Assembly (NCBI GenBank): GCA_963747175.1
Contig: CAVVDW010000021.1
Span: forward strand, 612-64,611
Source of the DNA: an uncultured Alphaproteobacteria bacterium
GTDB lineage: Bacteria; Pseudomonadota; Alphaproteobacteria; Rhizobiales; Methyloligellaceae
Length of the DNA: 64,000 bases
Direction of reading: 5' to 3'
A model generated the notes under the pieces. It saw nothing but the letters and a program-made list of their open reading frames with translations. It had not been told where the DNA came from and searched no databases. This document shows, piece by piece, positions 1 to 22,459 of the stretch (its first letter is position 1; each line of letters begins with the position of its first letter). A program made the translations under genes and the position numbers.

Positions 1-96
1 TGGCAAAGAGCGGATGGGGCATATGGAGGGCGGCTAACCAGCAGAAGACGACATGCGCCGAAACCAAAACTCAACCTTGCCAGTCCGGTTGTCGTC

Positions 97-360
97 GTGC
101 TGTTAGCGGTGGCGTCACTCAAACCAGCCGACGCCAGCGTCCCGTGCCAGGGCAATTTCCAGATCACCAAATACGGCCCGATTGCCACGCCATATTGCGA
201 GGAGGAGCAGATCGCACTCGTGGCCCAGAGCCGCGGCTGGCATGTGTCCGCTTCTGAGGTTCACAACAATCCGCTGAAGAAGATCGAAATCTGCACAGAT
301 TTTGCGGGTGATGCACGGTTGAAGGGCTCTTGTCCGGTCCGAGCCAGGCGGGGCGGGTGA
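97..360 (+). CDS. Small secreted Cys-containing hypothetical protein
   Basis: Hydrophobic N-terminus with ADA cleavage-like site, then CQGNFQ...ATPYC...EIC...SC; frame is open back to base 1 so the start is uncertain. Confidence 0.6.
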   Translation: MLLAVASLKPADASVPCQGNFQITKYGPIATPYCEEEQIALVAQSRGWHVSASEVHNNPLKKIEICTDFAGDARLKGSCPVRARRGG

Positions 361-584
361 CCATGCTGCACCTTGCAGGGTCCCCATTCGCGGCGTTTGT
401 CCGTGCTGTGCTGTTGAAGTGTTGCGGTGTTGCGGTCGGAGAGGCTCCCCCTCGCATTGTGCTTCCCCCATCGGGTCCCTCGGTCTGAAGTAGCAAAGCT
501 CGGCGTCGCGCGCGGGATTGCTGGCGTTCCCGGAGTGGGACTATCATTCCGCCATCAAATGTGGGCCTCGTCATGAGGTGACAA

Positions 585-986
585 ATGCACAGGCAAGCGA
601 TCTTCGTACTGGCCGGGGCAGTGACTCTCGCCGCATCCATTCCTGCGCAGGCTTGGTGGTGGCAAGAACTTGTGAACGCCGCCACGAAAGGGGCCGCCGT
701 GCTCGAAAAGGCTGCACCAAAGGTTGCAGGTGAGCTTGAAAAGACCGCACCGAAAGCAACACATGCTTTCACTGAGAGCGAGGCTGTCAAGGCTTGGACG
801 AAAGTCGAGGGTGGCAAAAGCGCCAGTGAAGCGACTGGAGGCAAGGGCGCAGAGGTGTTTGAGGCAATCCACCACGGAACGCATATCGTAGACGCCGCGC
901 ACAAGGCTTTTTCAAATGACGAGCAGCAAGAAGAAAAAGGAATTGCAGTAGGGTCTTGCAATTGGCCCCCGAGCGACGCCCGGTAG
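585..986 (+). CDS. Secreted hypothetical protein
   Basis: Signal peptide MHRQAIFVLAGAVTLAASIPAQA; Ala/Lys/Glu-rich body; GAGG 7 nt upstream. Confidence 0.55.
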   Translation: MHRQAIFVLAGAVTLAASIPAQAWWWQELVNAATKGAAVLEKAAPKVAGELEKTAPKATHAFTESEAVKAWTKVEGGKSASEATGGKGAEVFEAIHHGTHIVDAAHKAFSNDEQQEEKGIAVGSCNWPPSDAR

Positions 987-1149
987 TGCTTCGTGTTGAC
1001 GCCTTCGCGGACCGAGGTCCTGCTCTGTTGTTCTCGCGGCTGGGCAATGATGGCAGCGAGGCAGTAGCCTTCATCGCGTTCCTCGCTTTGCGGAGATACG
1101 GCTTCCAGCCGCCTTGGTGATGGGTAGCGGCTACTCTACTGCGTGGCGG

Positions 1150-1312
1150 TTCGTTCCAGCCCCTTTGAAGATGCTTGATGCGGGCTCTGGCAAGTAGCTC
1201 CCAAGCATGCGCCATTTCTTCGAACTGCTGTTTCTGCTTCTGGGTCCTTCATTTGAGACGCGAGCCTTCGACACTCTACGGCGCGAAGCTCATATTCCGA
1301 CACCTTACGCAT
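1150..1312 (-). pseudogene. Frameshifted small helical protein, same family as 7565-7765
   Basis: Manual read MRKVSEYELRAVECRRLASQMKDP, then one extra base, then QKQQFEEMAHAWELLARAR; 3' end approximate. Confidence 0.55.
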
Positions 1313-1608
1313 GACGAGCCCCCCTGGTGCCTTAGGCTGCCGGGTAAACTCGCAACTGGGAAAACTGTTCGAGGCCCCCTCGGTGGGGTTCCTCTCTTCT
1401 CCTTACTAGATGCAACCCGAACCCTCAGCGTGAGCGGCCCTTAGTGGACCGACCACGAGCTTTGGAGGTGCGAGATTTCGAGGGTCGATAGGAGGACTGG
1501 AGGACTGACCCCCTCCGTGCCTAGACCCTCACAGTCGTAGCTCGACGCTGACTTTCCCCGCGGGTTCATAGGAGCCCTTGGTCCGTTTCCTAGTTGTGGC
1601 ACACACTC

Positions 1609-2002
1609 TGTAACCCTAACCCATTGGCGCGGCGGTCAGAACATGGGCCTTCTGAGACCACAGGGGGTCGGGCTTTGTAACGCCTGTAACGGGTGTCACG
1701 GCCTGCGCCAGCCTGGCGACGCGACGCGCGTCATGCACCCCACGCGCTCCGCTGTAACGATCCAATAGGCGGTGGCCGGGCTTAAGTCCGGCCCGCCTCG
1801 TTAGGTGGCACTAATGCATCAAGTGACACCCAGAGCCTCCCCCACCTGCGACGATGCAACGCTGCAACGCTTCTATTGGGGGTAGGACGTCACTTTCTTC
1901 GGGCAGAGCTTCATTGGGCAGAATGAGCGCCAGGGCAGCCCTTCTGCAGCTACTCCTGCGCGAAATAACCTAGCTCGATAGCCCTGCTAACGCGACGTGA
2001 CA
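1609..2002. repeat. Iteron-like TGYMAC(G) repeats, putative replication origin
   Basis: TGTAAC at 1609, 1676, 1685, 1753; TGTCAC 1694; TGCAAC 1855, 1863; inverted GTGACA 1823, 1997. Confidence 0.5.
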
Positions 2003-2076
2003 CAGTGGATTTGTCGAGTTTCATCCACTTTGCAAGCGCTGTGCATGACACCCCGCTCGGGTACCTGTCGATACTA

Positions 2077-3242
2077 TTACCATGACATTCTCAGAGTCAG
2101 GTAACGGACCGCTTCCACAGTTTCACGCACACTGTCGTCCACGCTGGCACCCGCACTTTCGGCCACCAAATCGGCTACGAGTTCTCTGACCACAGCGTAG
2201 TCGTCTAAGCTCGCTACAATTCTGCCTTGAGCGTCTCGTTGGCGTGCCGCCTGATGCAACAGGGCATGGGTGGTGATGAGCCCTAGAACGGCTGGAATGT
2301 CGCGGCGCAGCCGGAGGGTGACGGGTGGCACTAAACTCGCTAACACATCGGCGAACGGAATTACGACATTGCGATCGCCGTCTTCGAGCCACTCTTGAAG
2401 GCGATGCCACTCAGACAAATCAGGTTCCAAGCGTGACATATTTCCGGTGTAGAGCTAGAGGCCTGAGCGCGTATGACCGCAGAGGTTTGTTCTCGGCTAT
2501 CGTCAATGGGGATGCTCAGCATTTTGGTCTCAAGCTCACTATCGAGGTGGATGGCCGTCGTAGTAACGAGCAAGTTGGTCGGCCCTTCACGTTCGATGGT
2601 CTTCGGCTCAGGACCCTCCGAGCCGCAAACTACCGTCTTGTACTTGATGCGGCCCTCAGTCAGCAGGCTTCTCATGATGTAAGCTTTCCGAAGCCGGCAT
2701 CATTCCGGCCGCTTCAGCCATAACATTGTGCGATGTTCCAAGGGCTCGTCATCGTAGATCAGCGCTTTCTCGCTGGTGCTGGTAACGTCAGAGAACGCGG
2801 AGGAGGGGAAGAAGGCCAGTACTTTGTTGGCTGTGTGGGATTTGCCTGCGCTAGAAGGGCCTTTCACGGCACCAGATATTGGCCTGGTCAGCAGTCAAGC
2901 TCGTCATTATTAGGAAGATCAGCTTCGCGGCCCTCTGTTCACCAACGAAGCCTTGTCTCCCTAGCTCACCCACTAGACGAATCCAGGATGCGAGGTTTGG
3001 AGGCGAGATTGCCACACGCTAGCCAAGCGTCGTCGCCCGTGCTCGGTGCATTCCGGAACATGGCGTTGCGGTGTTGCGTCCTCAGGGGAGGAGAGGCCCA
3101 CCTCCTGTTCCACAGCGTCGACTTCATTGCTGGAGCACTCGGCCACGACTAACTGCGTGCCAAGATCGAGCGCCTGGTTGCAAATTGACCCCGACATGGT
3201 ATATTTGTAGCAGTCGTTACATCTTTGTTGTTCATTGTTCAT
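2077..3242 (-). pseudogene. Multi-frameshifted P-loop NTPase of the primase/helicase-associated type found in satellites and ICEs
   Basis: Walker A VKGPSSAGKS at 2838-2861 (not in ORF track); later pieces REGPTNLLVTTT and VVIPFA...RLRRD...HALLHQAAR lie in different frames; 5' limit approximate. Confidence 0.7.
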
Positions 3243-3295
3243 CCCTTCTTGTGGCCCCTCTCAGGAGGGGCTGCTTGTTTCTAGGAGTTCCGTCT

Positions 3296-3544
3296 TTAGC
3301 GATAATCCGCAATCCACTGGTCGCCCTCCGGCTTGGGGATCACCAACCGACCCCGCCTGGTTGAGACTCGGCCTCGCTTGTCAGGGGCAAACACGTTGGT
3401 GAGCCTCGGGCCTCGGCCCTGTTTGCAGAGCACATGAAGCCATTGGCGGGAAATACCCGCCCGGCGTGCGAATTCCTGCACGCCATAACCTTCGATCTGT
3501 CGGTCCAAGATATTCCCTCTGTTACGTCTGCCCCAATTGACCAT
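3296..3544 (-). CDS. Excisionase/AlpA-like helix-turn-helix protein
   Basis: YGVQEFARRAGISRQWLHVLCKQGRGP motif; directly downstream of the integrase. Confidence 0.75.
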   Translation of the reverse strand: MVNWGRRNRGNILDRQIEGYGVQEFARRAGISRQWLHVLCKQGRGPRLTNVFAPDKRGRVSTRRGRLVIPKPEGDQWIADYR

Positions 3545-3807
3545 TATACTGTTCTAGACCCCAATTGTCAATGGTATTGCAGAATAATATTCGGGAGGTG
3601 TCAGTATTGCGTGGCAAGTTGTACAATAAACTGAGTTAGCTAAGCCACCAAGTCTGCCTAACTTCCAATGCAAGCTTTTCTTAGGCTGCTTACCCAGGTG
3701 GTTGAATGGGGCGCTGGCTTCTGCCGTTAGGTTCGGCGATCACTCTATTAGGTCGGTGGTCGCTTCACCCGCAGAACGAGGGCGGCCCATGAGGCGCAGT
3801 GCAAGAG

Positions 3808-5190
3808 CTATGGTTTCAAGCCTGGAACGGATGCCTTCGCCAATTGCCTCTTGAAGCTCGATGAACCGTCCCCGACGGTCATCGTGAAGGAGCGACCCAG
3901 ATATTGCGGCGAGACAGTCCGACCCCTTCGTTTAACGGGGAGACCGTGCTTCCGCAAGTAGTCGGTTATGCGCTGTTGGGAGGGCCGCAACGCGTCAACG
4001 TCCTTAGAGACATAGCCAGCGTGTACATCATTCTTCGGCAGGGAGTGATTCGAGAGCAACTTAGAATGATAAGGTGAAACGCCCGCTGCTGAGGCGGCAC
4101 TTATGTATGTGTTCCTAAGTCCGTGAATAGTGTAGTTCACCTGAACCTTTTGAGTGCGGGGGTCTCGAATGTGGCCGCTTTTGCCGCTGCCCGGGAACAG
4201 CCACTCACTATTAGTTGCTGCAAGGCGGCGCTCCACAATCGTCATCGCAGCGTTGCTAAGCGGGATGGTGTAGGCACGATCAGCCCCACCCTTGGGTTTC
4301 GGGATGGGTAGAGTAGCCTTCTGTAAACTGACATCCTCCCAACGGATTGCACACACGGTTGCCTTGCGAAGACCAGTGAGGACGGTCAGGAAAAGAAGGT
4401 CACGGATTACGTTGTTGCTAAGCTCGTCTACTTCCGCGAACCATTTGGATAGTCGCCGGAGAGGGATGGCAGCATCCCGGCAATTCTCCTTGTACATTTC
4501 AACGGCGATGGTAGGTGACACCGTGAGCGACGTATCTTCCTTCTGAGCGGTGTTCCAGATGGCTCGGAAATACCGCATCGTCTTGTTAGCAGCGTAGTGA
4601 CCGCGGCTCTTTGCCGATTGCCTCATGTCTTTCACGAAGCATCGTGGGCGTGAGCTTCCCCAAGGGCAGGTCGAGCCAATCTCGCAGCCCGTGTTCGATG
4701 TGCCAGATGTATTCAGTTATCGAACTTTCTGACTTGCCTTTGTTTCGCATCCGTTGGACGTGCCGAGCCATGGCTTGTCGGAGTGTGAAGCCCTCGACAC
4801 CCCGCTCTCCCTTCGGGTCCAGCCCCGCACGCAGCTTACGCTGATAAGCTCTCGCGCCTTTCCGAAAGGGTTCGAGTGCGTCATCGAGGTGAAAGCTCGT
4901 TCCGGCAGAGCCGCTTTCGTCAGGTCCAATGCTCTCCAACCTTGCATCGGCCAAAGACGTGATTTCATCTTCGGTTGGTAGCCGACCAAGCTCAACTGGT
5001 CGACAACCGTTGTGAAGCTGTACCGGAACTGGGCGTACACAGCGAACTTCCCTGACGAGGAAGCCACACAGCGATAGCGCAACCCTCGAACGGCTGGGTC
5101 CGCCATGGTCATATTGGGTTTGAGTTTGAACAGGCGCCTGTAAGTGATGCTTGCAGAACTGGTTCTCATGGTGGCGACCTCGTTGACCAT
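3808..5190 (-). pseudogene. Tyrosine integrase with Arm-binding N-terminal domain, two frameshifts
   Basis: Three frames join into one protein: N-terminal arm domain (LGR...SLADAR), core domain, catalytic TGLR, PKGG, HGLR, NH, AGY. Confidence 0.9.
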
Positions 5191-5282
5191 GCATTAACCA
5201 AGCCTCGCAGAAAGTCAAGCTGAAGGGCAAAAGCCCTAGGAGAAAAGCGTTTTGGGGCAACATACAGCAGCAGGAAAGTGGT

Positions 5283-5348
5283 GAAACGCAGGACTTAAAA
5301 TCCTGAGGCCGCAAGGCCGTGAGGGTTCGACTCCCTCCGTCCGCACCA
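5283..5348 (+). pseudogene. tRNA-Leu(TAA) 3' fragment, att scar copy 1
   Basis: CAGGA-CTTAAAA-TCCTG anticodon arm, long variable arm GGCC-GCAA-GGCC, GAGGG-TTCGACT-CCCTC T arm, CGTCCGC-A-CCA end; no 5' acceptor strand GCGGACG. Confidence 0.9.
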
Positions 5349-5407
5349 CAAGATCAAGCGTTATTTGGCATTATCCTACAATTAAAGTCGGCAGAGCCGA
5401 TTTTTTT

Positions 5408-5428
5408 GCTTACCCACGCGCTTACCCA
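5408..5428 (+). repeat. GCTTACCCA direct repeat, possible integrase arm-type sites
   Basis: Copies at 5408 and 5420; a third at 3688. Confidence 0.45.
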
Positions 5429-5715
5429 AAGGCAACAGATCGCGTCGCCCGGGCGAGGCTATTCGCGGTGTGCTTCCCCCAGCCGGAGTCCCACAGTGGG
5501 TCCAGTTGCAACGGGGCCCCATCCATATGGCGAGGGTCTCGGCCGCGAGAGACCATCGAACTTTAGATGAGGCGTAGATGACTGCGGCGACCCGTCTGTG
5601 CTGCTGTTTGGGCAACACCCGCTAACCAACTTCGAGCCAGTCCGCATACGCGGCGGGCAACATATGGTAAATAAGTGGGTGCGCGTCCCTGCGCGCGTCT
5701 CGATAGGGGGAAATC

Positions 5716-6341
5716 ATGAAAAGCCACATATTGGATTGGCGGCTTTGACTGCCATCGGCTTATTGGGCGCTGCCTTTGCCGGAGAGGCCACCAAACCAAC
5801 TCAGATGACGGAGGAGCAGATGGATAATGTGACGGCGGGTGTTCTGCCAGAAGATTCCGACTTCGAGGAAGCGAAGAAGACGGCGCTGCGAAAGATGACC
5901 TACGGCATGTGGGTGCTCACCGCGGGCAAGGGCGACGACCTTGAGGGCTCGAGCGTCACCTGGGTGATGCAGACGTCGTTCAACCCGCCGCTGGTGGTGG
6001 TCGCGGTGAAGGTCGACAGCCACCTCGCGCAAGTGATCGAGCGGCACCAGGCGTTCGCGATTCACCTATTAACCAAGCAGCAGAAGGCGCTCGCCGAGGC
6101 GTTCACCAAGCCGACCACGGTGGGCGGCGGCAAGATCGGCGGCATCGCGTTCAAGCCCGCGCCGGTGACGGGGGCTCCGCTGCTCGAAGGCTTCAGCGCG
6201 TGGGCAGGAGCGAAGGTGACCGACGTGGTGCGCCGCGGCGACCACTCGCTCTTCGTCGCGCAAGTGGTCGAAGCGGGCGTGAGCGACGACAAGGCGCAGC
6301 CGCTGGTGCTGGCCGAAGTCGGCTGGAACTACGGCGGCTAA
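5716..6341 (+). CDS. Flavin reductase-like (FMN split-barrel) domain with an N-terminal signal-peptide-like extension; start needs one extra A
   Basis: YGMWVLT...SFNPPLVVVAV...GAPLL...GDHSLFVAQV...GWNYGG; ATG 5716 after a purine-rich SD enters frame if the A4 run is A5 (MKKPHIGLAALTAIGLLGAAFA). Confidence 0.8.
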
Positions 6342-6415
6342 TTCCTTTCCAGAAGGGAGAGGCCGACCAGGGACGAAGTCCCTCGCGGGTGAGGGAAGCA
6401 ACCCAAACCGTCGCC

Positions 6416-6565
6416 TTACGCCCAACTCACCGTCAGCACGCCGCGCTCGCCGCGCACCGACGCATCGACGCGACCTTCCTTCACGCCGAGCGCATCGAGC
6501 GCCGCCTCGAGGGCACCCGCGAGACCACGAGTGAGCGCAATTTCGCCGACTTCACCAGCGCCAAT
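6416..6565 (-). pseudogene. Orphan C-terminal gene fragment
   Basis: IGAGEVGEIALTRGLAGALEAALDALGVKEGRVDASVRGERGVLTVSWA*, strongly GC3-biased, in-frame stop immediately upstream. Confidence 0.45.
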
Positions 6566-6647
6566 TGATCAGCTTTAAATTCCCACTGCACAGCTTTTGC
6601 CGAGGTGGACTAGTCCGCGGGTGGCGCGTGATTCAAGGTAACTAAAA

Positions 6648-6710
6648 ACGCACGACTTAAAATCCTGAGGGGGAAACCCCGTCCGGGTTCGACTCCCGGC
6701 GTCCGCACCA
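6648..6710 (+). pseudogene. Divergent tRNA-Leu(TAA) 3' fragment, att scar copy 2
   Basis: CACGA-CTTAAAA-TCCTG, variable arm GGGG-GAAA-CCCC or similar, T arm CCGGG-TTCGACT-CCCGG, CGTCCGCACCA. Confidence 0.85.
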
Positions 6711-6915
6711 ACGCTTTCCGGGTGATGATGCGCTGGACCTGACTGGCTTCAGACCCCGTACAGACCCGAAGCACACTTCTCTAATATGTGCCCGCTTCTG
6801 GCGCCGAGCCGCCGCGCTGGCCGCTACCCCCAGCGTCGGCTTCTCCCCAGGCCCTACCTCCCGGCCGGGCTAGGACTGGGGCCCCGCCATGTTGCCCGAA
6901 CCGGTGAACTTGGGG

Positions 6916-6940
6916 GGAACCTTCCGTCAGACGACAAGTT
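6916..6940 (+). promoter_or_regulatory. EcfG/sigmaT-type promoter candidate
   Basis: GGAAC-N16-AGTT; SD AGGAGG at 6958 and ATG at 6969. Confidence 0.55.
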
Positions 6941-6968
6941 GGCCCCGTATAGCCAACAGGAGGAAATC

Positions 6969-7133
6969 ATGAGGGCCATCGTTGCTGTCCTCTTCGCCCT
7001 TGCTCTCGGGACCGCATTTTCAGCGCCCGGCTTTGCAGCCGACCCGACCCAGGCAAAGACCAAGGTCGAGTGCCAGAGGGCTGGTGGAATGTGGGACGTC
7101 AAGACGAACTCATGCCTTCGTGGCATGGCCTAG
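6969..7133 (+). CDS. 54-aa secreted two-Cys miniprotein
   Basis: AGGAGG SD; signal peptide MRAIVAVLFALALGTAFSAPGFA; mature part with C...GGMWD...C. Confidence 0.75.
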   Translation: MRAIVAVLFALALGTAFSAPGFAADPTQAKTKVECQRAGGMWDVKTNSCLRGMA

Positions 7134-7229
7134 CCCGGCGAGGGTTGATCGCGCCGCTCGGGGCACTACCTAACCGGCAGCGATGATATTACCCCCATCG
7201 CGAGGTCGCTTCCTCCCTGTGGCGACCGG

Positions 7230-7267
7230 AGAGCCCCGCGCCAGTCCACCGCGTTCGGGGCTCTTTC
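7230..7267 (+). terminator. Hairpin terminator candidate
   Basis: AGAGCCCCG ... CGGGGCTCT followed by TT. Confidence 0.45.
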
Positions 7268-7282
7268 CTAGTGACCTCGTCG

Positions 7283-7308
7283 GGAACTCAGTGCGGGCGG
7301 CCGACGTT
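7283..7308 (+). promoter_or_regulatory. EcfG/sigmaT-type promoter candidate
   Basis: GGAAC-N17-CGTT. Confidence 0.6.
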
Positions 7309-7314
7309 GAGCGC

Positions 7315-7520
7315 TAGCCCTAGCCAATCCAACCCACCGCTAGGGTATCCTGCAACGGCCCGGACCCATGACCCCGGGCCGTTCCCATGTGGGCAATGCC
7401 ACAGTCAGGCCCTCGCGTGTCGCTACAATATGCACACAGCCCAGCTGCCAGGGTCGTCGAGCAGACCCGAGGCGCGAGTTGTGGGGAAGCCCCGAAGCGA
7501 CACCTCCGGGGCTTCTTCCC
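7315..7520 (+). ncRNA. Candidate structured small RNA
   Basis: Lies between an EcfG-type promoter and a terminator-like hairpin; at least five stems; no convincing ORF. Confidence 0.4.
7486..7520 (+). terminator. Hairpin terminator candidate
   Basis: GAAGCCCCG ... CGGGGCTTC followed by TTCCC. Confidence 0.45.
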
Positions 7521-7531
7521 TGTCGGTGTTG

Positions 7532-7556
7532 GGAACTCACCGCGGGGAAGGCCGTT
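7532..7556 (+). promoter_or_regulatory. EcfG/sigmaT-type promoter candidate, leaderless transcript
   Basis: GGAAC-N16-CGTT, 8 nt before ATG 7565. Confidence 0.6.
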
Positions 7557-7564
7557 CCCTGAAC

Positions 7565-7765
7565 ATGCGTTCCACGCCGCAACAATGCCGAGAACATGCC
7601 GACCACTGTCGCAAGATGGCAGAGGACGCGCCGCCTGCGCTGGCACGTGAGTTTGAGAGCCTAGCCGCGACGTGGTTGCGCTTAGCAGGCGAGCTGGAAC
7701 GCGCAGAGGCGTTCCGCCCGGACGTTCTTCCCAACGTTATCCCGCTGGAGCGAGCCCGACGCTAG
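7565..7765 (+). CDS. Small helical hypothetical protein
   Basis: MRSTPQQCREHADHCRKMAE...FESLAATWLRLAGELE, a pattern common in Hyphomicrobiales small proteins. Confidence 0.7.
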   Translation: MRSTPQQCREHADHCRKMAEDAPPALAREFESLAATWLRLAGELERAEAFRPDVLPNVIPLERARR

Positions 7766-8053
7766 GCGGCTTCAGGCAGGCGCTCGATCTCGCTCCAGTG
7801 GTTCCCGCGTTGGCGGCTGGCTTCTTTGGCAATCACGCTCGGGGTGTTGTCCGTGGCGCGGGCCTGGACTGTAGATGGAGTGGGGCTAGTGTGGGGGGCA
7901 CTGGGCTCGGCATCGGTCGTGGCCAATTGTACGAAAACACCCCTAATGGCTGGCTCTTAGTCGCGGGCGATTCTTACACGAACTCAGAGTAAGGGCGGGT
8001 AACTGATCACCCCGCCTAACGCTGGAACTGAACGAATGCACCGCGTGGGTCGA

Positions 8054-8096
8054 AGGCCGCAAGGCCGCGAGGGTTCGACTCCCTCCGTCCGCACCA
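8054..8096 (+). pseudogene. tRNA-Leu 3' fragment, att scar copy 3
   Basis: AGGCCGCAAGGCCGCGAGGGTTCGACTCCCTCCGTCCGCACCA, one mismatch to copy 1. Confidence 0.9.
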
Positions 8097-8285
8097 ATCG
8101 CGAAGGCCGCCCTTACCGGTCGTCCTCTCGATGCCCCGTCGTGCACGGCAATGCCGACGCCTCATGACGGGGGATTAATCGCTGCGCGGGCATAAATCGC
8201 CGTGCGGCGGTAAACCGCTTTGTCATGGACCCGTCAGGGGGTAGGGCTATGACAATTCGTCTTTGTCATTACCAGGAGACCTCCC

Positions 8286-14050: not shown

Positions 14051-14293
14051 TGACGCACTCCTTCACTTGCACTCATGACGGGCTGAACCAAGGATAGCCG
14101 ACAGGCGTTGGCCCCCGTAGCATTTTCGGTAAGAGCTTAAGCCACTCCACATCGTGATTTTTATCAAGGCGTGACAAGTGGCCTCAGGGATGGGATTCGT
14201 TCTGCAAGCTGGCCTTTTCCGCGAGCGCACCCCATCTTGTTGCCGAGAGCGCAGGTTTTCGCGCTTTTCCCGCCCATTCTTCGAGGAGAACCC

Positions 14294-14827
14294 ATGAGTA
14301 AGGAAACGACTGTCAAGGAGCGCCGCAAGGCGCCGCTGACCACGCCGACCGACCTCGGCGACAATGCCCGCAAGGACATCACCGGCGCGCTGAACGCGCT
14401 GCTGGCCGACGTGTTCGCGCTCTATCTCAAGACCAAGAACTTCCATTGGCATGTGAGCGGGCCACACTTCCGCGACTATCATTTGCTCCTCGACGAGCAG
14501 GCCGACCAGATCTTCGCCATCACCGACGACATTGCCGAGCGGGTGCGCAAGGTGGGCGGCATCACGTTGCATTCGATCGGCAATATCGCGCGGCTCCAGC
14601 GCATCCCGGACAACGATGCCGACTATGTCGATCCCCTCGATATGCTGGCCGAGCTCAGGTCCGACAACCAGGCGCTGATCGCAAGCATGCGCGAGGCGCA
14701 TGATCTTTGCGACGAGGAGAACGACGTGGCGACCACGAGCCTGCTCGAAGTGTGGATCGATCAGGCCGAGCGGCGCGTGTGGTTCCTCTATGAGGCGAGC
14801 CGCAGGGGCGATCCGACCGGTCACTAG
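14294..14827 (+). CDS. dps: Dps-family DNA starvation/stationary phase protein
   Basis: KTKNFHWHVSGPHFRDYHLLLDEQ...DDIAER; SD GAGGAG. Confidence 0.92.
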   Translation: MSKETTVKERRKAPLTTPTDLGDNARKDITGALNALLADVFALYLKTKNFHWHVSGPHFRDYHLLLDEQADQIFAITDDIAERVRKVGGITLHSIGNIARLQRIPDNDADYVDPLDMLAELRSDNQALIASMREAHDLCDEENDVATTSLLEVWIDQAERRVWFLYEASRRGDPTGH

Positions 14828-14939: not shown

Positions 14940-15430
14940 ATGAGACATCCTTGGTCGGCGGCAGCCTTGGCCATGCTCGTTCCGCTCGCGCTAGCAGCCT
15001 GCGGGGCGCCCAGCACTCCGGACTTCGTCCAGCAGGTTGCCATGAGCGACCTGTACGAGGTGGAGGCGGGCAAGATCGCAGCCGCCAAGGGCCAGTCTGA
15101 CGCGGTGAAGCAGTTCGGCCAGCATATGGTCGAGGCCCACGCGCAGACCACAGCCGAACTGAAGGGCGTCGTCGAGGCGGAGAAGATCGATGTCGCTCTT
15201 CCCACCTCGACGAGAAGCATCAGCGCATGATCGAGGATCTGAATGCCGCGCATGACGCGGATTTCGACAAGACCTACGCCAGGCAGCAGGTCAGCGCGCA
15301 TGAGAAGGCCGTCGATCTGTTCTCGCAATATTCCGACAAGGGCGACGACGCCGTGGTGAAAGCCTTCGCCGCGAAGACGCTGCCGGTCATCAATCAGCAT
15401 CTCGAGGAGGCCAAGAAGCTCGCTCAATGA
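14940..15430 (+). pseudogene. DUF4142 lipoprotein, frameshift near 15205
   Basis: Lipobox LAAC; SDLYEVEAGK...VKQFGQHM; second half DFDKTYARQQV.AH...LP....HL in another frame. Confidence 0.8.
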
Positions 15431-19923: not shown

Positions 19924-20580
19924 TCAATGGCTGCTCGAGGCCGACACCGCCGTCTGCGGCACGCTGTCGGGCGGCAAGAGAGAAATCCAAACCAGCGGGT
20001 TACGCTCTGACTGCCGCTTGATGTAGGTGTAGGGCGTGTCGGCGAAGCGCAGGATCTCGCGGCGCTTGTTGTCGAGAACGAAGTCGCCCTTGTCGGTGCG
20101 GACAGTCAACACCGCGTGGCCCTCGTTGTTCTCGTCGCGCACGACAGTGATGAGAAGCGTGCTCTCCGGCCAGCCGCGCTCCATCAGGATGCGCTGCTTG
20201 AGCAGGACGTAATCCTCGCAATCGCCCTTGTTGTGGGTCGGATAGGTCCAATACTCGACCTTGCCGTAGAGATCGATGTCGGTCACCGGCTGGATCGAAG
20301 TATTGATTTGGTCATTGACCTGCTCGAGCTCGCGGAACTTTGCGCCCGTGAGCTGAACGCGGTCGGCGAACTTCGCCTCCGGCAAGCAGTCGGCCTGATG
20401 CTCGCGGCAGAAATTCACATAGCCGATAGGTGGCAAGGTATCGCCGAACGACTGCAAGAACGCCACCTTCTGAGGCTCGATCTTTGACGGCGCGACGCTG
20501 ATCGCGTGATCGTTGCTCGCGCCTGACGGCAAAGACGAAATAAACATCAAGAAGGCTGAGCCTAGAACAAACTGTTTCAT
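19924..20580 (-). CDS. Transglutaminase-like cysteine peptidase (BTLCP/LapG family)
   Basis: PPIGY..FC, GDCEDY.LLK, EGHAVL, LDN; signal peptide. Confidence 0.92.
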   Translation of the reverse strand: MKQFVLGSAFLMFISSLPSGASNDHAISVAPSKIEPQKVAFLQSFGDTLPPIGYVNFCREHQADCLPEAKFADRVQLTGAKFRELEQVNDQINTSIQPVTDIDLYGKVEYWTYPTHNKGDCEDYVLLKQRILMERGWPESTLLITVVRDENNEGHAVLTVRTDKGDFVLDNKRREILRFADTPYTYIKRQSERNPLVWISLLPPDSVPQTAVSASSSH

Positions 20581-20855
20581 TGCACCCCCCATTTTATTGG
20601 GATGCACTATGTCAGAAAGATTTTGAGAACCCGATAAAAGAAGGGATCGGTTTAAAGCAGTATTGGTAGGGGTTTTTTAGTGAGAACTACTCAAACCTGA
20701 AGAGGGCAGAGTTAGCGGGATGTTCCGGGAATCGCTAAAATTTTAGCGAACTTAAGAACAAACCGCGATTTTTGGCGGAAATCTGGGATTTATGGGATGG
20801 GCTTGCCTCGTCCGGAAAGCATCGATTCACGATAGAAGTGAGGGCAGCGTGCGCC

Positions 20856-21518
20856 CTAACTGAAGGAACGCGCAATACTGTCGGGATCTTGAAGCTCGAC
20901 GAATTTTATTGCCACGCCCTGATCGTGATGGCGGACGACGCGGCCCCGCATACGACCAAGAACCACCACGGTGTCGATCGGCGGCTTGACGGCGCAGGCG
21001 ATCGAAGCGCCGCTCAACGAAACGTCGAGCACGCGGCAACTATGCACATCGCCATTCGGCAGGATGAGCTTAGAGGCGCTGATGCGCGGCACGACGCGCT
21101 CGTGCTTCCGCTCCTCGCTCAAGCCGAGCGACTCTTGGTTGATGAGCCAGGTCAGGAGATTGACGATGCGCTCGCGCTTGGCAGCGCTTGCCAGGATGCG
21201 CACGGCAAATCCGCCTTCGACCACTCTGACCACGATGCCCTCGATGCGCCCTACATGGTCGAGATAGGCGACGATCCGCTCGCCTTCCTCGCATTTCACG
21301 GGAGCGAGCAGGGCCATACCTCCTGCGGACATCTGGGTCACTTGGCAGAGGTACTCCTCCCTGTTCTCGCGCATGAAGCGTCCGAACAGCGTGACGGCCA
21401 CGCGCCGGAAGCGGCGGCGATCGGGGACGATCGTGGCAAGGCGATGAGCGGTGGACTTGAGCGTTCGCAGTCGCAACGGCGTCGCGAGCGTCGATTCCTC
21501 AGGGGGTGCGGTATTCAT
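20856..21518 (-). CDS. Tandem PilZ-domain protein
   Basis: RRRFRRV...MSAGG and ERKHERV...DVSLSGA motifs. Confidence 0.88.
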   Translation of the reverse strand: MNTAPPEESTLATPLRLRTLKSTAHRLATIVPDRRRFRRVAVTLFGRFMRENREEYLCQVTQMSAGGMALLAPVKCEEGERIVAYLDHVGRIEGIVVRVVEGGFAVRILASAAKRERIVNLLTWLINQESLGLSEERKHERVVPRISASKLILPNGDVHSCRVLDVSLSGASIACAVKPPIDTVVVLGRMRGRVVRHHDQGVAIKFVELQDPDSIARSFS

Positions 21519-21637
21519 CGTCCTGCCATGCGCGGGGGTTCGTGGCAGGCGAAAACCTAGGTGGCTCCTGTTAAGGAGCGCATAAATTCATGGTCCAAAA
21601 TGATATCGTCAGTCTACGTTAGTTTTAACCGTAATGG

Positions 21638-22231
21638 TCAGTCGCGGCCCTCGGCGAGGCCCCCGTCGAGGACGCGGAAGCGCCGCGGCGACAGACGCAC
21701 GATCTCGGCGCTTTCCCGCGTGGCGTGAGCCGGGGGGCCATCAGGCCAATGCAAGTGCAATTCGACGAGTTCGTGGCGGAGCAGGGGATCCCCGCCGAGC
21801 CAGAACGGCGGCTCGATGGCCGTGATCACGCCGAGCAGTCGATTGATCGTCTCACCGGTATGGATGAGGGGCAAAAGGACGAGCTCGAATGTCACTTGCC
21901 GGTTGGTGCCGGTAAAGGAGCGGAACGACCCATGTCCGACCGCCCCATCGGTAAACACGGCATGCAGCATGGCTGCGAGCTGCTCGCGGTCGTCATCGCT
22001 AAAGAGGCTCAAAAGATCGATGCCTCTCAGCTCCTTACCGAATTGCTCGCAGATTTTGGTGCCGGCCAGCCGGAAGCGGAAACCGAGCAGTCCGGCGCCT
22101 TCGGCAATGAAGGTCTCCGGCAACAGAGCAGGGATCCTCGCCGGCTCGATCTCGAACCGGCGCGGCGCAACGCGGCCATTGCGTACGCGATCCCAATACG
22201 CGTAAAGCTGCCTGCTCGTTGGCTGCTGCAT
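21638..22231 (-). CDS. PAS_5 (DUF1457) domain protein
   Basis: LYAYW.R.RNGR.AP.R..IEP..I..LL...FRLAGT..C..FG.EL.G. Confidence 0.85.
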   Translation of the reverse strand: MQQPTSRQLYAYWDRVRNGRVAPRRFEIEPARIPALLPETFIAEGAGLLGFRFRLAGTKICEQFGKELRGIDLLSLFSDDDREQLAAMLHAVFTDGAVGHGSFRSFTGTNRQVTFELVLLPLIHTGETINRLLGVITAIEPPFWLGGDPLLRHELVELHLHWPDGPPAHATRESAEIVRLSPRRFRVLDGGLAEGRD

Positions 22232-22459
22232 AACCCACCCGACGCAAAACGCTACACCGTGGTCCTGCGCACGCCCATTCTTCGGCCATGGGAGGGTAAA
22301 CATCCCTCTTTGGCACAGAGATTGAGCTTGCGATGCTCGTGGGCTGACTAAGCAGGGAGTGTGCCAGGGCCGGGGAATTGGGCGTCGGGGATCTCATTCC
22401 GCGCCATTATGGTTGCTGCGGGCGGCTTTCGGGGTCGCCTCCTTGGAGCGCTTCGTCCG

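Follow-up and report, generated by a model that had tools for sequence, protein, structure and literature searches.

Does a run of three short units, packed into 0.9 kb and each preceded by a promoter-like motif of the type that sigma factors of extracytoplasmic function (ECF) read, form one transcription unit or three, and which sigma factor would read it? The locus that raises this question lies in a 64-kb stretch of DNA from an uncultured alphaproteobacterium (the whole stretch is hereafter called the window; other loci are given by L numbers), and we think it probable that its positions 6916–7860 hold three independent, same-strand micro transcription units of the EcfG class, each closed by a G+C-rich hairpin. 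The three motifs, which had been picked out in a sequence-only reading, are all present on the plus strand: P1 (GGAAC-N16-AGTT, 6916–6940), P2 (GGAAC-N17-CGTT, 7283–7308) and P3 (GGAAC-N16-CGTT, 7532–7556). As that reading held, each precedes a short unit, namely a 54-amino-acid (aa) secreted peptide (unit 1), a structured RNA devoid of an open reading frame (ORF) (unit 2) and a 66-aa protein lacking a Shine–Dalgarno sequence (SD) (unit 3), and related hairpins follow units 1 and 2 at 7228–7266 and 7483–7520, which is 16 and 11 nt before the next GGAAC.

The motif cluster is real and lies well above chance. In a pattern search of both strands of the window, GGAAC-N16/17-CGTT occurs only at 7283 and 7532, with 0.68 occurrences expected. 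When the pattern is relaxed to GGAAC-N16/17-NGTT, the site at 6916 appears, together with three others that have no bearing on the cluster; one of these, a reverse-strand match at 7558–7534, was rejected as the shadow of P3, since the CGTTCC there contains the reverse complement of GGAAC. Of 4000 permutations of the window, 3 placed at least three relaxed motifs on the same strand within 700 nt, and 8 placed two strict motifs within 300 nt. Additionally, a promoter scan detected no sigma-70-like promoter in 6600–8200. All three sites carry GGAAC at −35, whose AAC is kept in every orthologous promoter, and the −10 box is CGTT at both P2 (N17 spacer) and P3 (N16 spacer), with CGTT, TGTT or GGTT in the orthologs. 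The assignment of the sites to ECF/EcfG-type promoter units is thus upheld, for orthologous loci keep both boxes around diverged spacers, and RNA covers all three units.

The conservation of promoter architecture can be followed base by base at P3. Unit 3 (7565–7765, plus strand) begins with an ATG 8 nt past the CGTT of P3 and has no SD. The geometry GGAAC-N16-(C/G)GTT-N8-ATG is identical in the window (GGAAC-TCACCGCGGGGAAGGC-CGTT-CCCTGAAC-ATG), in L014 (GGAAC-TCGCGGCGCGATAGGC-CGTT-GTCCGAAC-ATG), in L006 (GGAAC-CCCGGCGAGCGGGAGC-CGTT-CTCACCGT-ATG), in L020 (GGAAC-CCCGCGGGATAAGCGC-GGTT-TCGTTAGC-ATG) and in a paralog in L033 (GGAAC-CTCCGCAGCCTCACGC-CGTT-CCAACTTC-ATG). Among the four orthologs, 8 of the 9 motif positions are invariant, compared with 3 of the 24 positions in the spacer and discriminator (Fisher p = 1e-4); when the L033 paralog is added, the invariant spacer and discriminator positions fall to 2 of 24 (Fisher p = 3e-5). 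The fixed 8 nt to the ATG and the missing SD are what a leaderless mRNA requires, and judged by this footprint unit 3 would be translated without a leader. Distant members of the unit 3 family in L024 and L028 lack such a promoter and carry a normal SD leader, and in L021-23 the family gene comes after a 25-aa membrane ORF behind GGAAC-N16-TGTT; a leaderless gene behind an ECF-type promoter thus characterises a subfamily rather than the family as a whole. At ~4390 in L001 and L003, AGG replaces the start ATG of the unit 3 ortholog, with an in-frame TTG two codons on, which reflects either a sequencing error or a lost leaderless start.

The family to which the unit 3 protein belongs is large and unannotated, with 125 representatives at E<1e-3 in a 50%-clustered library and 883 clusters at E<1e-5, and the protein has no match in Pfam or NCBIfam. 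An AlphaFold2 model (mean pLDDT 86) shows a two-helix hairpin with helices at residues 5–21 and 24–49, for which a Foldseek search of the PDB returned generic helical hairpins only, none at E<1. Helix 1 contains a CxxHxxHC motif that is invariant among the closest relatives. A 13-bp hairpin (7742–7801, plus strand; −39.8 kcal/mol, z = −3.6) spans the stop codon and is possibly a terminator or a stabiliser of unit 3.

Both small proteins of the locus are under purifying conservation. The ORF of unit 1 (6969–7133, plus strand; SD AGGAGG at 6958–6963) translates as MRAIVAVLFALALGTAFSAPGFA|ADPTQAKTKVECQRAGGMWDVKTNSCLRGMA, where the bar marks the cleavage site of a signal peptide that ends in GFA before ADP, leaving a predicted mature part of 31 aa with two cysteines. 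Homologs fall into nine clusters from soil metagenomes, in which the signal peptides vary and the mature part is nearly invariant, with the consensus DPTxAKTKxxCQRAGGMWDVKTNSCLRG and the invariant core CQRAGGMWD..TNSCLR. Because the mature part is conserved and the signal peptides are variable, unit 1 is a real gene under purifying selection. Its protein has no match in Pfam or NCBIfam, and neither it nor the unit 3 protein has a tblastn match in plasmids. Scans for unit 1 returned two loci in genomes and three in metagenomes, and homologs were found in a Methyloceanibacter metagenome-assembled genome (MAG) and in an uncultured alphaproteobacterial MAG, which is the indirect ground on which the analysis places the host in the Alphaproteobacteria. 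In all five lineages (window, L014, L001-8, L011 and L009/12/13), NNAAC-N16/17-NGTT lies 28–33 nt upstream of the ATG of the unit 1 ortholog: P1 reads GGAAC..AGTT in the window and L014, and its equivalents are AGAAC-N17-AGTT in L001-8, AGAAC-N16-CGTT in L011 and GAAAC-N16-AGTT in L009, from the Methyloceanibacter MAG, and L012/13. Downstream of unit 1 stands the hairpin T1 (7228–7266, plus strand; GGAGAGCCCCG...CGGGGCUCUUUCC, also given as GAGCCCCG...CGGGGCTC; −21.9 kcal/mol). Some RNA contigs stop at 7237–7242 and others run on to 7296 or 7316, and since some of them cross the junction of units 1 and 2, T1 is best described as a leaky terminator.

Expression of the locus was followed in Logan contigs from eight metatranscriptomes of soil, sediment and mine drainage (at least four studies), which match the cassette at 99–100% identity. 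The RNA falls into three blocks. The first covers 6964–7242, in some contigs to 7296 or 7316, and no contig begins upstream of 6964; the second begins at 7281, 7302 or 7311 and ends at 7461, 7501 or 7518 (e.g. 7302–7518 and 7311–7501); the third extends from 7577 or 7589 to 7773 or 7856, with ends clustering at 7773–7776 or 7841–7856. No contig in the eight runs bridges 7518–7577, and none was found in 6753–6963 or 7857–8053. The starts of the contigs fit P1 (6964) and P3 (7577) and are ambiguous for P2 (7281–7311). Outside the units, RNA at the cassette flanks occurs only in X32, as tRNA-like pieces at the repeats described below (6654–6752, reaching 42 nt into the cassette, and 8054–8100), and the contig over 6654–6752 joins that stretch to an intact tRNA 5' half. 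Elsewhere in the first 20 kb of the window, clear coverage falls on just two genes, one ferritin/Dps-like and one of the DUF4142 family. This pattern argues for RNA rather than contaminating DNA, and for high in situ expression. The ferritin/Dps-like gene lies at 14295–14827 and the adjacent DUF4142 gene at 14940–15430; a TGAAC-N17-CGTT site at 14084–14109, about 185 nt upstream of the former, shares the downstream GTTGGCCCC(C)GTA with P1.

Unit 2 (7315–7520, plus strand) is a non-coding structured RNA of about 200 nt, in which P2 is combined with the lack of a conserved ORF and with a terminator hairpin at 7483–7520 (plus strand; GGGGAAGCCCCG...CGGGGCUUCUUCCC, also given as AAGCCCCG...CGGGGCTT), near which RNA contigs end (7501 and 7518). 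Its fold, stable and partly covarying, is predicted to comprise a 5' hairpin whose loop is rich in C and A, another hairpin of 9–10 bp and the terminator hairpin. The predicted folding energy is −93 kcal/mol (z = −4.2 versus shuffled sequence), and the version in L014 folds with z = −5.1. ORFs in unit 2 are broken in L014 by a 2-nt indel just past the start of the sole ATG-initiated ORF. The window and L014 differ in the second hairpin by a CG-to-GC swap and a CG-to-UG change, one of each, and both leave the bases paired; across the RNA the paired positions show one compensatory and three one-sided changes. The first hairpin is rebuilt in L014 on another stem sequence, and in both versions the predicted loop is rich in C (CAAUCCAACCCACC in the window, UCGUCCCCAACCAACC for L014) without a run of six Cs. 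DNA metagenome contigs of unit 2 are at least 99% identical and thus of no use for covariation. Two of the soil metatranscriptomes contain an expressed variant with an 8-nt deletion (7386–7394), which breaks the ORFs and removes the third small hairpin of unit 2; this variant also carries G7376T, the commoner allele in the strain contigs. P2 itself lies in the most divergent segment of the cassette (7271–7415, 73% identity) and reads GGAAC-N16-TGTT in L014.

Is the tandem design peculiar to this one place? In L001-8, a second lineage without tRNA repeats, units 1 and 3 are direct neighbours, unit 2 being absent, and both have a promoter of their own, that of unit 3 standing with its gene 180 nt after unit 1. 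Within 0.9 kb of L011, three promoters follow one another, GGAAC-N17-CGTT, GGAAC-N16-CGTT and AGAAC-N16-CGTT, which precede a 71-aa membrane ORF, a 65-aa membrane ORF and a unit 1 homolog, respectively. A module of L033 contains four units: GGAAC-N17-GGTT leads into a 102-aa secreted ORF; GGAAC-N16-CGTT into an ORF-less RNA of 89 nt (6946–7034) with a 13-bp terminator (z = −4.2), whose 5' hairpin loop, UCCUUCCCAUCUCCCCCCUC, contains CCCCCC; 9 nt later, GGAAC-N16-CGTT-N8-ATG opens the 62-aa leaderless paralog of unit 3; and TGAAC-N16-CGTT stands before a homolog of the 71-aa membrane ORF of L011 (9724–9429, minus strand; ~600–760 in L014). The locus thus offers two non-homologous cases in which a small RNA is coupled to a leaderless two-helix protein, at 7283–7765 in the window and at 6914–7258 in L033. 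Furthermore, two GGAAC-N16-CGTT sites separated by 375 nt stand in the core chromosome, upstream of aspS (minus strand; 720 and 345 in L033, 4512 and 4136 in L032), before ORFs of 102 and 77 aa, so that tandem micro-units are not confined to the island array; they are a habit of this organism.

Some smaller observations belong to these relatives. The TGAAC box of L033 is formed partly by the reverse complement of the T arm of a tRNA fragment (GGGTTCA); if so used, it would be a case of a tRNA remnant supplying a promoter box. L033 encodes two more paralogs of the unit 3 family (7437–7631, plus strand; 6400–6681, minus strand). Downstream of the unit 3 ortholog in L020, a GGAAC-N16-GGTT site is followed by about 105 nt without an ORF and with C-rich runs (1014–1150), in which the hairpin GAGAAGCCCG...CGGGCUUCUC marks a candidate small RNA of weak fold (z = −1.5).

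The three units sit in an array of islands at a tRNA-Leu(UAA) gene. Their cassette, which we call cassette B (6711–8031), is bounded on the left by a 65-nt tRNA-Leu(UAA) 3' fragment running from the anticodon stem-loop to CCA (copy 2, 6646–6710, plus strand) and on the right by a further tRNA-Leu 3' fragment whose last 43 nt match the tRNA (copy 3, 8032–8096, plus strand). Another copy of the 3' part (copy 1, 5284–5348, plus strand) has lost its 5' half in the window, where no intact tRNA is found; at the same place, ARAGORN predicts an intact tRNA-Leu(UAA) in the strain contigs L032-L036 (8296–8382 in L032, 4501–4589 in L033), which encode an identical unit 1 protein. That the repeats might be 3' ends of tmRNA was considered and dismissed, given the anticodon loop CUUAAAA and the intact tRNA-Leu(UAA) copies in other strains. 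Because compensatory differences occur in the variable arm and the T arm, the fragments stem from different donor tRNAs. The usual order in the strains is aspS, ceramidase, tRNA-Leu, cassette A (the neighbouring flavin-reductase module), the 65-nt fragment, cassette B, the 43-nt fragment, hbdH and acetoacetate decarboxylase; in L033 and L014, cassette A is replaced by a different module of 5.1 kb. On the other side of copy 1, positions 1–5600 of the window have a lower GC content (0.53–0.60, versus 0.62–0.67 elsewhere) and no high-GC3 ORFs, and a frameshifted tyrosine integrase (3808–5314, minus strand; Phage_integrase match on ORF 3808–4635, with ORF 4586–5314 in another frame) abuts copy 1. 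This region is a further decaying island, which displaced the tRNA 5' half and whose far end lies outside the window.

Cassette B itself contains no recombinase or integrase, the sole one in the neighbourhood being the frameshifted gene of the other module. The cassette is present in every contig that reaches the site (L014, which is about 90% identical, L016, L032-L039 and L041), a sample biased in that most of these contigs were retrieved via unit 1, although three were found through hbdH instead; no strain contig examined shows an empty site. A tract of 450 nt (7714–8161) is about 99% identical between the window and L014, whose genomes are otherwise about 90% identical, which suggests a recent recombination across the right part of the cassette. 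Cassette B is best read as the innermost, apparently fixed remnant of a tandem island array. In cassette A, the flavin-reductase ORF (5598–6341) has an N-terminal extension of about 95 aa with a signal-peptide-like stretch, IGLAALTAIGLLGAAFA, out of frame with a good SD and ATG at 5716; it may be a frameshifted gene for a small secreted protein fused to the reductase ORF. Far from the micro-units and unrelated to them, a cluster encoding a BTLCP transglutaminase-like protease, PilZ and PAS_5 lies on the minus strand at 19924–22303.

How firmly can the three units be assigned to EcfG? The sequence-only reading had named GGAAC-N16/17-CGTT as the EcfG/sigmaT/RpoE2 consensus, and the literature agrees: the published consensus is GGAAC-N16-CGTT, in which AAC hardly varies but the −10 box is flexible, with TGTT, CATT and GGTT among its forms, and TGTT is a documented functional variant (PMC7083833). 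The sites described here share with published EcfG regulons the GGAAC, the 16–17-nt spacer, the CGTT (TGTT or GGTT in relatives) and the invariant AAC, as well as the kind of target, mostly small hypothetical, envelope or secreted proteins; the regulon of Sphingopyxis granuli TFA, for example, comprises 79 transcription units (PMC7083833). They differ in the packing of three units into 0.9 kb and in one AGTT −10 box. By its promoters, the locus would thus belong to the EcfG regulon.

Several observations weigh against three independent EcfG-class units, and they concern the sigma factor, the RNA evidence and above all unit 2. AAC at −35 together with a CGT-type −10 box is common to many ECF groups (PMC7083833), the AGTT of P1 was not confirmed among the published EcfG −10 variants, and none of phyR, nepR and ecfG (searched as sigma-70_r2/r4, NepR and PhyR) is found among the 30 window ORFs scanned. 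It is possible, if unlikely, that the promoters are genuine ECF promoters read by a different ECF sigma factor, in another envelope or oxidative stress regulon: the link to EcfG runs only through the sequence motif, and the P1 equivalents of homologs have AGAAC or GAAAC at −35 and AGTT at −10. On the other hand, P2, P3 and many other units of the same organism match the full GGAAC-N16/17-CGTT exactly, and a regulon for general stress or starvation would suit both the products, which are small secreted or membrane proteins and a small RNA, and their co-detection in soil RNA with the Dps-like gene. Regarding the RNA, Logan contigs carry no strand information and lose the ends of transcripts. Three of the four unit 2 contigs start 4–34 nt upstream of the predicted start, and contigs 7154–7316, 7000–7296 and 7188–7435 cross the junction of units 1 and 2, so unit 2 may be partly a read-through product. 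The U-tracts of the hairpins at 7228–7266 and 7483–7520 are short, and neither hairpin passes a canonical terminator scan. The spacer of P2 carries a 6-nt deletion in one variant among the RNA runs, the common polymorphism G7376T weakens one stem pair of unit 2, and the covariation is thin, coming from two diverged sequences only. Independent use of P2 is the least secure point of the model.

The same contigs and poor U-tracts would suit a single operon transcribed from P1 or from elsewhere, in which the hairpins act as processing or stability elements and P2 and P3 go unused. We consider this less likely still than a different sigma factor, because no contig bridges units 2 and 3, the −35 box, the −10 box and the ATG distance of P3 are conserved around free spacers at four to five loci, unit 3 in L001-8 follows its own promoter, and a unit 3 without an SD makes sense only if transcription starts at its ATG. 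The units had also been described as a mobile plug-in for the host regulon, and this description survives in part: tRNA-Leu 3' repeats do flank the cassette, and the strain-variable neighbour module does carry EcfG-type micro-units, whereas the cassette has no recombinase, is found in every strain contig, and has counterparts in a second lineage lacking the tRNA repeats and in tandem units of the core chromosome. A currently mobile cassette B, be it integron-like or a mobilisable islet, that plugs micro-genes into the regulon of any alphaproteobacterial host is the least probable of these alternatives; the swapping of neighbour modules between strains, the occurrence of the unit 1–unit 3 pair in two unrelated contexts and the 99% identical tract favour it, and the fixed presence of the cassette, with no empty site, speaks against it. 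An integron cassette in the strict sense was rejected, as neither an attC-like repeat nor an integron integrase is present.

Under the favoured reading of three independent EcfG-class units, stress or starvation would cause PhyR–NepR to release EcfG, and all three units would be switched on together from starts predicted near 6947, 7315 and 7564–7565; the exact starts and the molecular functions of the products are inferred, as are the leaderless translation of unit 3 and EcfG as the sigma factor. Unit 1 would yield an SD-led mRNA for a 54-aa pre-peptide that is exported and cleaved to a 31-aa two-cysteine peptide. Unit 2 would give a non-coding RNA of about 200 nt with a C/A-rich 5' loop, which in all likelihood regulates by base pairing, as a small RNA like GsrN. 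Unit 3 would give a leaderless mRNA starting at or next to the A of the ATG and encoding a cytoplasmic two-helix hairpin protein.

Each of these units can be set beside a known system. GsrN, a small RNA that depends on sigma-T in Caulobacter, has a 5' loop rich in C, and such RNAs are predicted to be widespread in Alphaproteobacteria (PMC5869019). Like GsrN, unit 2 is non-coding and has an EcfG-type promoter and a 3' terminator hairpin, and its predicted 5' hairpin may likewise present a C-rich unpaired loop; unlike GsrN, it is about 200 nt long instead of 106 nt, presents a C/A-rich loop (CCAACCCACC) instead of a C6 run, and has no gene for a general-stress regulator nearby among the 30 window ORFs scanned, in contrast to a position next to phyR–ecfG. 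The 89-nt RNA of the sister module in L033, with its six consecutive Cs in the loop, is GsrN-like in this respect. Rfam searches with unit 2 and the L033 RNA returned nothing credible, whether under the gathering threshold or with E relaxed to 10, so that no homology of unit 2 to GsrN emerged via Rfam; no direct comparison with the GsrN sequence was made. Unit 3 resembles leaderless mRNAs in that its ATG lies at the predicted +1, it lacks an SD, and its −10 box keeps a conserved distance to the ATG; what sets it apart is the coupling of the leaderless design to an ECF-type promoter within a subfamily of one small-protein family. Leaderless mRNAs are common in Alphaproteobacteria such as Caulobacter, and a literature search found no leaderless EcfG targets. 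Site-specific integration into the 3' part of tRNA genes was reportedly described by K. P. Williams in 2002, and the usual cargo of tRNA islands consists of metabolic, virulence or defence genes. The present locus shares with tRNA-gene island arrays the tRNA-Leu(UAA) 3' repeats between modules of 1.3–5 kb, a broken tyrosine integrase of the P4 type nearby and the differences between strains, and differs from them in that cassette B has no integrase, looks fixed and carries regulatory micro-genes. A preprint on a stress-response integrative and conjugative element does not treat EcfG promoters.

A bolder extension, which we regard as rather doubtful, is that modules are exchanged at the tRNA-Leu(UAA) hot spot of this soil lineage and add an accessory layer to the general stress response. 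They would consist almost entirely of EcfG-wired micro-units, including a recurrent pair of GsrN-like C-rich-loop small RNA and, immediately after it, leaderless CxxHxxHC protein, whose joint action might for example be that of a stress switch working both after transcription and on proteins. The units themselves add to a known kind of regulon, with general-stress promoter targets and a candidate small RNA, and no new mechanism is involved; the genomic arrangement is tidy and not unprecedented. If the favoured reading is true, the general stress response gains three uncharacterised products, namely a widely expressed secreted disulfide peptide of 31 aa, a new small RNA and a member of an unannotated two-helix family of more than 800 clusters, from micro-units that are among the few genes of a 20-kb region detectable in soil metatranscriptomes. 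In addition, GGAAC-N16-CGTT-N8-ATG would provide a compact and testable case of an ECF-driven leaderless gene, and strain-variable modules at tRNA genes that can arrive together with stress-sigma promoters would offer accessory genes a simple route into a global regulon.

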